Shown in pieces: positions 34,552 through 35,914 of a stretch of 64,000 nt of DNA. How positions within the stretch are numbered: position 1 is the stretch's first letter; each line of letters opens with the position of its first letter. The stretch lies in assembly GCA_965223705.1 (NCBI GenBank), contig OZ245015.1, forward strand, positions 135,106 through 199,105. Reading direction: 5' to 3'. The notes beneath the pieces are model-generated. The model was not told the DNA's origin, did no database searches, and worked only from the letters and a program-made list of their open reading frames with translations. Source of the DNA: Myxococcota bacterium. Lineage in GTDB: Bacteria; Myxococcota_A; UBA9160; UBA6930. The translations under genes and the position numbers were made by a program.

Positions 34552-34742
34552 CCGTTCACCTTCCTAAGCATGGAAGCCTGGCCGCTGCTCCGAGCGACCG
34601 ACTTCCGCCTAACGGAGTTGCGGCTCAGTGGGCCCGCCGACCTGAAGGCAGGATTCCGCCGATACCGCTGGTAAGGCCTCAAGACTAACGAACTAGAACC
34701 GAGCTAAGGCGGATCCACTGCAGCCGCTCTTATGATGCGATC

Positions 34743-34947
34743 CGTGATGAAATGAAGCGGCCGATGAGCACAAGCCACGTGCCCACCGGCCTTCATAGGG
34801 AGCGGTAGGCCGAAAGCCAAGAGGTCCCTTGCGAGACCGTTAACAAGCTCGGGTCACCGTTCCCGTTGCCGCAGCGAAGCTCGAACGATCGCTTGGGCCG
34901 CCCGGAGGCGAGCCCGTATTTGAGAGCCCGAGTTCGTTGTACCGGGA
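34743..34947 (+). ncRNA. Predicted bridge RNA (copy 2)
   Basis: 5' hairpin 34752-34796, target loop 34798-34864, donor loop 34871-34940. Confidence 0.75.
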
Positions 34948-34955
34948 AGTTTATC

Positions 34956-35879
34956 ATGGCCCCCTGCATTGGAATCGATGTCTCGAAGCACACCCTCGAC
35001 TGGAGCTCCGGCTCCAAAGGTCGCATCCAGAGCACCCGCAACGTCCCCCGATCAATCGCAGCCCTCGTTCGCCGACTCTCTGCACTCCGTCCAAAACGAA
35101 TCGTGGTGGAGTCCACCGGCGGCTACGAACGGCAGCTCGTTCTCAAGCTCGCTGAGGCGAAGCTACCCGTCGTTGTGGTGAACCCGCGCCGAGTGCGGAG
35201 TTTTGGAGAGGCGGTGGGATGTCTCGCCAAGACCGATCCCATCGACGCTCGCCTCTTGTCCCAGTTCGGCGAGAAGGTAGAACCGCCGCTTCGTCCGATC
35301 GTCGAGGGTAGAGAGCGTCTCCTGGCAGACCTTGTCGCGCGTCGCCGGCAGTTGGTCTCCATGGTCGTCGCCGAGAAGAACCGACGCGAGTGTGCACCCG
35401 CCGCGGTTCGCCGATCGATCACCGCCGTGCTGAAGATGCTCGAAGGCCAACTACGGTCCATCGACGGGCAGATGGAAAAGATCCTCGACGAAGACGCAGA
35501 ACGAGCCGAGCTGTCGGGGCTCCTGCAAAGCGTCCCCGGTGTAGGACCGGGTGTCGCACGCACGCTGCTCATCGACCTACCCGAGTTGGGTCACCTGGGG
35601 CGTCGAGAGATCGCGTCTCTCGTCGGGGTCGCTCCCTTCGCACGAGATAGCGGAATGTTACGGGGGTCACGACGAATCCGCGGAGGTCGTGCCTCGGTAC
35701 GCACTGCGTTGTATCTCGCGGCGATGACCGCTTCCCGCTTCAACCCGACTCTTCGAGGTGTCTACGAAAGACTTCGCGCATCGGGGAAGCCGCCGAAGCT
35801 CGCCTTCGTCGCTATCGCTCGAAAACTCCTCGTCATCCTCAACGCCATCGCTCGCGACCGCGTCGCCTGGCAGCCCTAA
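34956..35879 (+). CDS. IS110 family DEDD recombinase (307 aa)
   Basis: GIDVSK, VESTG.YE, KTD.IDA, SVPGVG, P..RDSG (catalytic Ser), GK....A.VA.ARKL. Confidence 0.95.
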
Positions 35880-35914
35880 GCGTTGACTTCCAACACGATC
35901 GCTTGTTAGGCCGC

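Follow-up and report, generated by a model that had tools for sequence, protein, structure and literature searches.

Here we describe an insertion sequence (IS) of the IS110 group that lies in three copies in the integron cassette array of a Myxococcota bacterium (GTDB lineage Bacteria; Myxococcota_A; UBA9160; UBA6930), and that we take, at a probability of roughly 0.85, to be an element of the IS621 type whose predicted bridge RNA is aimed at integron attC sites. The window, that is, the whole stretch of DNA analysed, comprises 64,000 nucleotides (nt) of contig OZ245015.1 (assembly GCA_965223705.1, positions 135,106 to 199,105 of the forward strand), and coordinates below are those of the window. 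The original prediction, made from the letters of the sequence, had proposed an IS621-type bridge-RNA layout with a CT core, a distinct IS110-group lineage and a recombinase of 307 amino acids (aa). All three proposals were upheld. The layout is supported by covariation of four guides with their DNA partners in 60 relatives, by a conserved junction promoter and by an end-to-end alignment with IS621 and ISCro4; the separate lineage by 227 non-coding nt upstream against 24 nt downstream of the gene, by the IS110 order of guides and by a single clade that holds all attC-type insertions; and the recombinase by an open reading frame (ORF) at 34956-35879 with domains PF01548 and PF02371. The mechanism is already known, and attC is a known target class for the sister group; what is new is the large lineage.

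In the mechanism that we propose, the element would excise as a circle, and the joining of its right end to its left end would create a sigma-70-like promoter (TTGACT, 17 nt, TATGAT). From this junction promoter the left end would be transcribed into a bridge RNA about 195 nt long, beginning near 34744 and finishing near 34940. The donor loop of this RNA would recognise the junction of the element itself and the target loop would recognise attC, and the 307-aa DEDD/Ser recombinase would then exchange strands at the CT core, leaving the element 1 nt from R'' and antisense to the cassettes. The analysis itself shows the anatomy, the covariation of guides and DNA, and the single clade, from which transcription, binding of the RNA and present activity are inferred.

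Three copies at one position in attC

The copies and the array that holds them are as follows.

30762-31928, plus strand: IS copy A, 1167 bp, with an 8-bp deletion at element positions 710-717 that frameshifts the recombinase
34729-35903, plus strand: IS copy B, 1175 bp, intact, with a left end of 227 nt, the ORF and a right end of 24 nt including the CT core
37196-38370, plus strand: IS copy C, 1175 bp, identical to copy B, in a different attC
29254-40545, minus strand: cassette array left of intI, with 13 attC repeats, of which 10 are empty and 3 occupied
34600-34728, minus strand: larger part of the attC split by copy B, whose R'' box and one more base lie at 35904-35911
41156-42157, plus strand: integron integrase gene intI (TIGR02249, 448.7 bits against a cut-off of 265)

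All three copies stand at the same place in the repeat and in the same orientation, each in a different attC site, and no fourth copy was found in the whole genome (4.56 Mb in two contigs) by blastn of the window together with a genome search. In every copy the left junction reads ...(C/T)AGCCGCT|CTTATGATG... and the right junction reads ...ACACGATCGCT|TGTTAG..., or, written from the element end, ACGATCGCT|TGTTAG. CGCT is common to the target and the right end of the element, and no further duplication was seen. The original prediction had put three copies at GCCGCT|TGTTAG, between R'' and L'', with this same CGCT shared and nothing else duplicated; the junction alignments agree on the position, 1 nt 3' of R'', and the shared CGCT is borne out at all three junctions.

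The repeat is about 130 bp long, and on the plus strand the empty repeats read GCCTAAC...GCAGCCGCT(G/T)GTT(A/G)G; the 13 repeats have the form GCCTAAC...GTTAGGC. R'' and R' boxes are present and an IntI-type integrase adjoins the attC array, as is expected of an integron. Because the cassette ORFs lie on the minus strand, R'' is the GCCTAAC box found at each repeat's window-right end, and the insertion, taken with its CT core, falls 1 nt 3' of this box in cassette orientation and antisense to the cassettes. The element occupies three of the four sites with CT|TGTTAG, as against none of the nine other repeats; by our own arithmetic, the probability that three occupied sites fall by chance within those four of 13 repeats is 4/286, or 0.014.

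We considered whether the copies might be inactive passengers, spread by recombination between attC repeats or by cassette shuffling without transposition of their own. Their left flanks are indeed long and similar attC repeats, copy A is a pseudogene, and a decayed relic lies at 28107-28225. However, homology of the right flanks extends over only about 6-10 nt and the cassettes differ on both sides; two of the copies do not differ from each other, and their ORFs and junction promoter are intact; the insertions are limited to sites matching the right-target guide; and unrelated arrays hold hundreds of relatives at this same position. We regard passive spread as very improbable and favour a real bridge-RNA element, which is probably active.

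In copy A the frameshift comes after about residue 161 (deletion after about 31470), and the left end and both termini are intact; such a copy could still be mobilised in trans. The relic at 28107-28225 is derived from a related element and is located at the array's far end, past the last attC that can be recognised. What remains of it is a fragment of attC, the left end's 5' hairpin (84% identity) and the initial 57 nt of the recombinase gene (88%), both guide loops having been deleted. An isolated, exact 23-nt copy of the 5' side of the donor loop (element positions 159-181) is present at 40578-40600, in the first cassette beside attI and about 35 nt from an empty perfect target. The cassettes beside copies B and C (35915-36389 and 36567-37036) carry a DUF4160/DUF2442 pair and the gene of a ParE-family toxin, which is preceded by a small partner ORF. 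DUF4160/DUF2442 and ParE-type pairs of this kind are typical cargo of chromosomal integron cassettes.

Predicted bridge RNA and its guides

The element's two non-coding ends are very unequal, with 227 nt on the left (before the ATG) against 24 nt on the right (after the stop). The features assigned to them, all on the plus strand, are these.

34731-34736, plus strand: -10 hexamer TATGAT, at the start of the left end
34759-34791, plus strand: 5' hairpin of the predicted bridge RNA, in which compensatory changes affect 6 of 7 pairs
34799-34863, plus strand: predicted target-binding stem-loop, with fold and comparative support
34815-34821, plus strand: left-target guide AGCCAAG, against target AGCCGCT, 4/7 match
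34841-34847, plus strand: right-target guide TAACAAG, complementary to core and right target, CT-TGTTA
34848-34849, plus strand: bases at the handshake position, directly after the right-target guide
34871-34940, plus strand: predicted donor-binding stem-loop, with fold and comparative support
34885-34893, plus strand: left-donor guide ACGATCGCT, identical to right end and core at 35895-35903
34922-34926, plus strand: right-donor guide GAGAG, pairing with core and left end, CT-CTT, through one G:T
35883-35888, plus strand: -35 hexamer TTGACT, part of the right end and separated from the -10 hexamer by 17 nt across the circle junction

The minimum free energy (MFE) fold of the left end gives a hairpin followed by two stems with internal loops. 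Much stronger support than that of the single fold came from a comparative test: 96.9% of the cells were paired, against 30-48% in slid controls, and none of 500 shuffles matched this value. Eleven base pairs show compensatory change across the left ends of relatives, and RNAalifold independently recovers most of the same helices. TTGACT and TATGAT would form a promoter only once the ends are joined in a circle, and the spacing of 16-18 nt across the junction is retained in 45 of 64 relatives; the circle of IS621 is described as driving its bridge RNA by the same split arrangement (PMC11208160). No family in Rfam 15 fits the left end, the sole match being to an sRNA inside the ORF at chance level (E 0.57). 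In each loop the bottom-strand guide lies 5' of the top-strand guide.

The original prediction had folded the left end into a 5' hairpin and two internal-loop stems, in agreement with both the MFE fold and the comparative pairing. It had also located the donor-loop motif ACGATCGCT at 34885 with its repeat in the right end at 35895, TGAGAGC at 34921, and TAACAAGC, complementary to attC, in the target loop at 34841. These coordinates proved exact, and TGAGAGC contains the right-donor guide GAGAG, which pairs with core and left end through one G:T. For TAACAAGC the assignment needed trimming, as its eighth base lies at the handshake position and not in the right-target guide proper. Neither the 4/7 match of the left-target guide nor the broken copy A had been mentioned.

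RNA guidance is supported above all by the way in which the four guides covary with the DNA segments that they pair with. Eighty loci were fetched from species-representative genomes and 80 from metagenomes; the covariation set consists of 60 distinct relatives with 55-78% protein identity, out of 65 loci with at least 275 nt upstream. Over this range of identity, nearly every locus ends ...CACG(A/G)T(C/T)GCT|TGTTAGGC(G/A)GC. Core and right target, at the 58 distinct loci with a visible right flank, read CTTGTTA in 54, CTTGCTA in two, CTTGTTG in one and an unrelated sequence in the remaining one. The right-target guide follows: TAACAAG is found with TGTTA in 44 cases, TAGCAAG with TGCTA in two and with TGTTA (by G:T) in eight, and CAACAAG with TGTTG in one. 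The left-target guide is identical to the left target of its own locus at a mean of 5.9 of 7 positions, against 4.73 (sd 0.10) when the targets are permuted among loci, with none of 2000 permutations reaching the observed mean, and it matches at 6 or 7 of 7 positions in 47 of the 60 relatives. On the donor side, the left-donor guide occurs in three types (ACGATCGC, ACGGTTGC and ACGGTCGC), and its first eight positions equal the right end in 59/59; for the right-donor guide, CTCTC occurs with GAGAG in 11 cases and with AAGAG in none. The flanks are attC-like as well: at 27 of 53 loci the right flank has an inverted-repeat partner some 95-150 nt upstream, compared with 3 of 53 for control patterns, and at those same 27 z is at least 3 against shuffles.

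Phylogenetically independent pairs were used in addition. Among them, changes in the left guide always went toward the left target and never in the opposite direction; at guide position 5 there were 6.2 same-direction against 0 opposite changes among 12 independent pairs (median p 0.03). The left guide tracks its target across the clade, which implies that it is under selection in most members. Lineage-wide, the right-target guide remains fixed on the conserved R'' box and the left-target guide differs with the host's attC family. The lineage also supplies a set of left guides that have been reprogrammed in nature against a right guide that stays constant.

The base directly after the right-target guide is an invariant C. 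It complements the last pre-core base of the donor (G) and, in most relatives, not the corresponding base of the target (C), which fits the handshake-guide idea of PMC11208158. In the present element, target and donor share CGCT, and the distinction between them at the handshake position is erased. In alignment A4, columns 167 and 207, which hold a left-donor and a right-donor guide base, covary from C-G to U-A in 15 of 60 sequences and are paired by RNAalifold; lineage history, or pairing within a free donor loop, may account for this.

The nearest relatives in the tree have the left guide AGCGCCT or AGTGCCT, matching their own targets. In the present element, position 4 of the left guide has been altered so as to fit the host, and positions 5-7 have not. 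All three copies share the 4/7 guide, so it was already present when the element spread. An alternative left-target guide, GCGGCCGAU at 34756-34764 (8 of 9 pairs, one a wobble), was rejected: it lies in the stem of the conserved 5' hairpin and shows no covariation with targets.

Several observations weigh against a fully RNA-programmed, active element. The left-target guide pairs with neither core base and agrees with its target at 4 of 7 positions; a match as poor as this occurs in only 8 of 60 relatives, and under a strict IS621 model it should impair insertion. In 51 of 59 relatives the left-donor guide ends with a base that does not agree with the core T. The fold of the single sequence is modest, at z = -2.4 against shuffles. 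The permutation tests ignore relatedness, which inflates them, and the independent-pairs tests are weak at each position (p 0.03-0.5). The attC at 40534-40545, nearest to the integrase, is a perfect target, GCCGCT|TGTTAG, and yet empty, and one copy in three is frameshifted. Finally, neither a circle junction nor an empty-site contig for the copy B cassette was found in the contigs of four runs of one sample; loose contig ends at 34728 run, in these four runs, into other attC copies.

The poor left guide raises the alternative that the site is chosen mainly by the protein, or by a folded attC together with the right half-site, with the left guide largely dispensable and the element half RNA-programmed. 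At least two insertions were made with the 4/7 guide, because the copies are identical, and in the subgroup with AGCCGCT as target the last three, core-proximal bases of the left guide vary freely (AGCCACC, AGCCGCA, AGCCTTG). The inverted-repeat partner expected of an attC hairpin, present at 27/53 of the relatives' targets against 3/53 controls, is in keeping with a role for the folded site. For IS621, 'half-match' recombination is reported in recent preprints, and for ISPpu10 a stem-loop in the target that acts as a second determinant. Against all this stands the clade-wide agreement between left guide and target (5.9/7 against 4.7 permuted, with 47/60 at 6-7/7). We consider this alternative unlikely, and it would refine the bridge-RNA reading more than replace it: an IS621-like half-match, or a target stem-loop as in ISPpu10, could explain why a 4/7 guide is tolerated. 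A poorly matched left guide in an evidently mobile element is in any case a ready test of the pairing needed for bridge recombination.

More speculatively, and with considerable doubt, the lineage might represent a second, independent attC parasitism among DEDD recombinases that follows a relaxed 'anchor and tune' logic, in which the right guide anchors the element at the near-universal R'' box and core-proximal pairing of the left guide is dispensable, and in which the folded attC may be an added determinant. If so, an element would first enter the integron of a new host, here with 4/7 positions matched, and adapt its left guide later, and it would be a natural case of half-match, structure-gated bridge recombination.

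The recombinase and its lineage

34956-35879, plus strand: 307-aa DEDD/Ser recombinase (PF01548 and PF02371; NF033542)

Both Pfam domains were detected beyond their cut-offs (PF01548, E 1.6e-17; PF02371, E 2.3e-15), and NF033542 scored 191.8 bits against a cut-off of 140. D8, E52, D94, D97, S232 and G233 are invariant in 21 relatives, and in the alignment they fall on the IS621 motifs GID, ExTG, KTDxxDA and SG; the catalytic residues of IS621 itself are numbered D11, E60, D102, D105 and S241 (PMC11208158). Residues 5-301 align with recombinases of known structure in the PDB, IS621 at E 2.2e-33 and ISCro4 at E 1.8e-37 (8wt6, 9t56). Named relatives are ISMex17 and ISMno7, with 44% identity, and ISEc32, with 40%. 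As judged from its domains and predicted catalytic residues, the protein is a member of the IS110 family.

Protein homologues number in the thousands; the best 120 are nearly all of 307 aa, with 71-90% identity, and lie on short metagenome contigs, and a metagenome scan gave more than 500 matches among the matches listed. The lineage is therefore widespread in environmental metagenomes and not peculiar to this genome, and, being so common, it may immobilise or reshape the cassette arrays of many chromosomal integrons. Among named carriers, the nearest are metagenome-assembled genomes labelled Myxococcota (72%) and Burkholderiales (61%; loci L006 and L007, respectively). Genomes of the same family and order as the window's own contain a full copy with 73% identity, or fragments; integron integrases above the cut-off are present in each of the four genomes examined. 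In one genome of the same family, G014, a single contig, fragments of a related element (C1:2436795-2437194 and 2536040-2536685, 70-75% identity) lie 375-470 kb from the sole integrase gene above the cut-off, and they may belong to attC clusters that have no integrase. One contig of the sample mentioned above departs from the element at 34902, inside the donor loop, and continues as the sequence that other members of the clade typically have, so that the sample must also contain another, related element.

A FastTree phylogeny was built from 134 distinct proteins, leaving out duplicates, proteins below 280 or above 345 aa and ORFs running off the locus. All 73 attC-type insertions (CT|TGTTAGGC) fall in one clade of 75 with an SH-like support of 97; of the other two members, one is on a contig that stops where the element's right end does, and the other combines an attC-like left flank with a foreign right flank. 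The 59 rows outside the clade are mostly alphaproteobacterial, with 45-52% identity and target sequences other than attC. This outgroup retains the layout: its donor guide, ACAGTCGC, equals the right end, and the reverse complement of core and right target lies about 95-110 nt upstream of the ATG in 35 of 60. A single attC clade, set beside an outgroup with the same layout at other targets, indicates that attC targeting is a derived, shared trait of one IS110-type lineage. Metagenome locus L109, a member of the clade, has an attC-like left flank, a normal right-target guide and an unrelated right flank, TCCATGAGA, which suggests deletion or recombination at its right end.

In the literature consulted we found no IS110-group element with a left-end RNA that targets attC, with the limit that the supplementary target-motif tables of PMC11208160 may hold the motif. 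The lineage is apparently undescribed.

Comparison with known systems

The element is most like IS621 and ISCro4. It shares with them a DEDD and Ser recombinase that aligns over its full length, a CT core, a promoter split across the junction, and a long left end that comprises a 5' hairpin as well as target and donor loops. In the IS110 group, as described in PMC11208160 and PMC11187229, the longer non-coding end lies upstream of the recombinase gene and the bottom-strand guide is 5' of the top-strand guide. The present element has such a long upstream end and two loops whose 5' sides correspond to the bottom strand and 3' sides to the top strand, core included, to which the left-target guide conforms only in part (4/7). 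It differs from IS621 and ISCro4 in that about one third of the residues are identical (by eye on the alignment), in that its 307 aa compare with chains of 328 and 341 residues, which makes the recombinase somewhat shorter than that of IS621, and in that its right-target guide has 7 nt, its left-target guide about seven informative positions and its donor guide a last base that is usually mismatched to the core. The target is attC here and a REP element for IS621.

The elements of the IS1111-attC group (ISPa21, ISPst6, ISKpn4, ISPa25) belong broadly to the same DEDD family and share the attC target, the attC end and the antisense orientation. These elements are said to occur in chromosomal arrays in multiple copies with decayed remnants, as Tetu and Holmes reportedly described in 2008. 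Membership of our element in this described group, whose seekRNA lies downstream of the transposase gene, would be consistent with the insertion behaviour, since ISPa21 and ISPst6 likewise go in close to the 5' end of attC, in antisense orientation relative to the cassettes (PMC3001079). Such shared behaviour is not itself proof of membership. A short, imperfect sub-terminal inverted repeat can also be seen by eye (right end CACGATCGC, left end GCGATCCGTG), and is partly retained in relatives; in the IS110 group such repeats are short or lacking. Moreover, one IS1111 relative, ISMtsp17, has its non-coding region upstream (PMC11187229), so that layout alone is not proof against membership. However, in IS1111-attC elements the seekRNA is downstream of tnp with the top-strand match first, the sub-terminal repeats are longer and the transposases have 330-350 aa (PMC11187229). 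Here the non-coding stretch measures 227 nt ahead of the ATG and only 24 nt after the stop, the left end contains both of the loops whose guides covary, with the bottom strand first, as in IS110, the protein of 307 aa is outside the quoted range, and it aligns over its full length with IS621 and ISCro4. We hold it to be highly unlikely that the element belongs to the IS1111-attC group; the evidence supports a distinct IS110-group lineage, set apart from that group by comparison with its published descriptions. A plasmid match of 30% identity beside blaTEM-1 (H78/L168) was tried as an IS1111 reference and set aside: an intact Tn3-type inverted repeat separates it from that gene, and its long non-coding region is the upstream one.

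ISPpu10, of the IS110 group, is likewise a bridge-RNA element with a structured repeat as its natural target, and there a hairpin in the target is reported to add specificity. Its target is different, a REP-like stem-loop, and in the present element we saw no sign that the fold of attC is sensed. Group IIC-attC introns are also RNA-guided and invade the 5' end of attC antisense to the cassettes (PMC3001079), by means of a ribozyme and a reverse transcriptase, in contrast to the recombinase and predicted bridge RNA of our element. In those parts of the literature consulted, attC invasion has so far been credited to the IS1111 group and group IIC introns only. Our results suggest that the IS110 group invades attC too, by way of a left-end bridge RNA, and does so at the same attC end and in the same orientation as the IS1111 group, which would mean that the two groups have converged on it.

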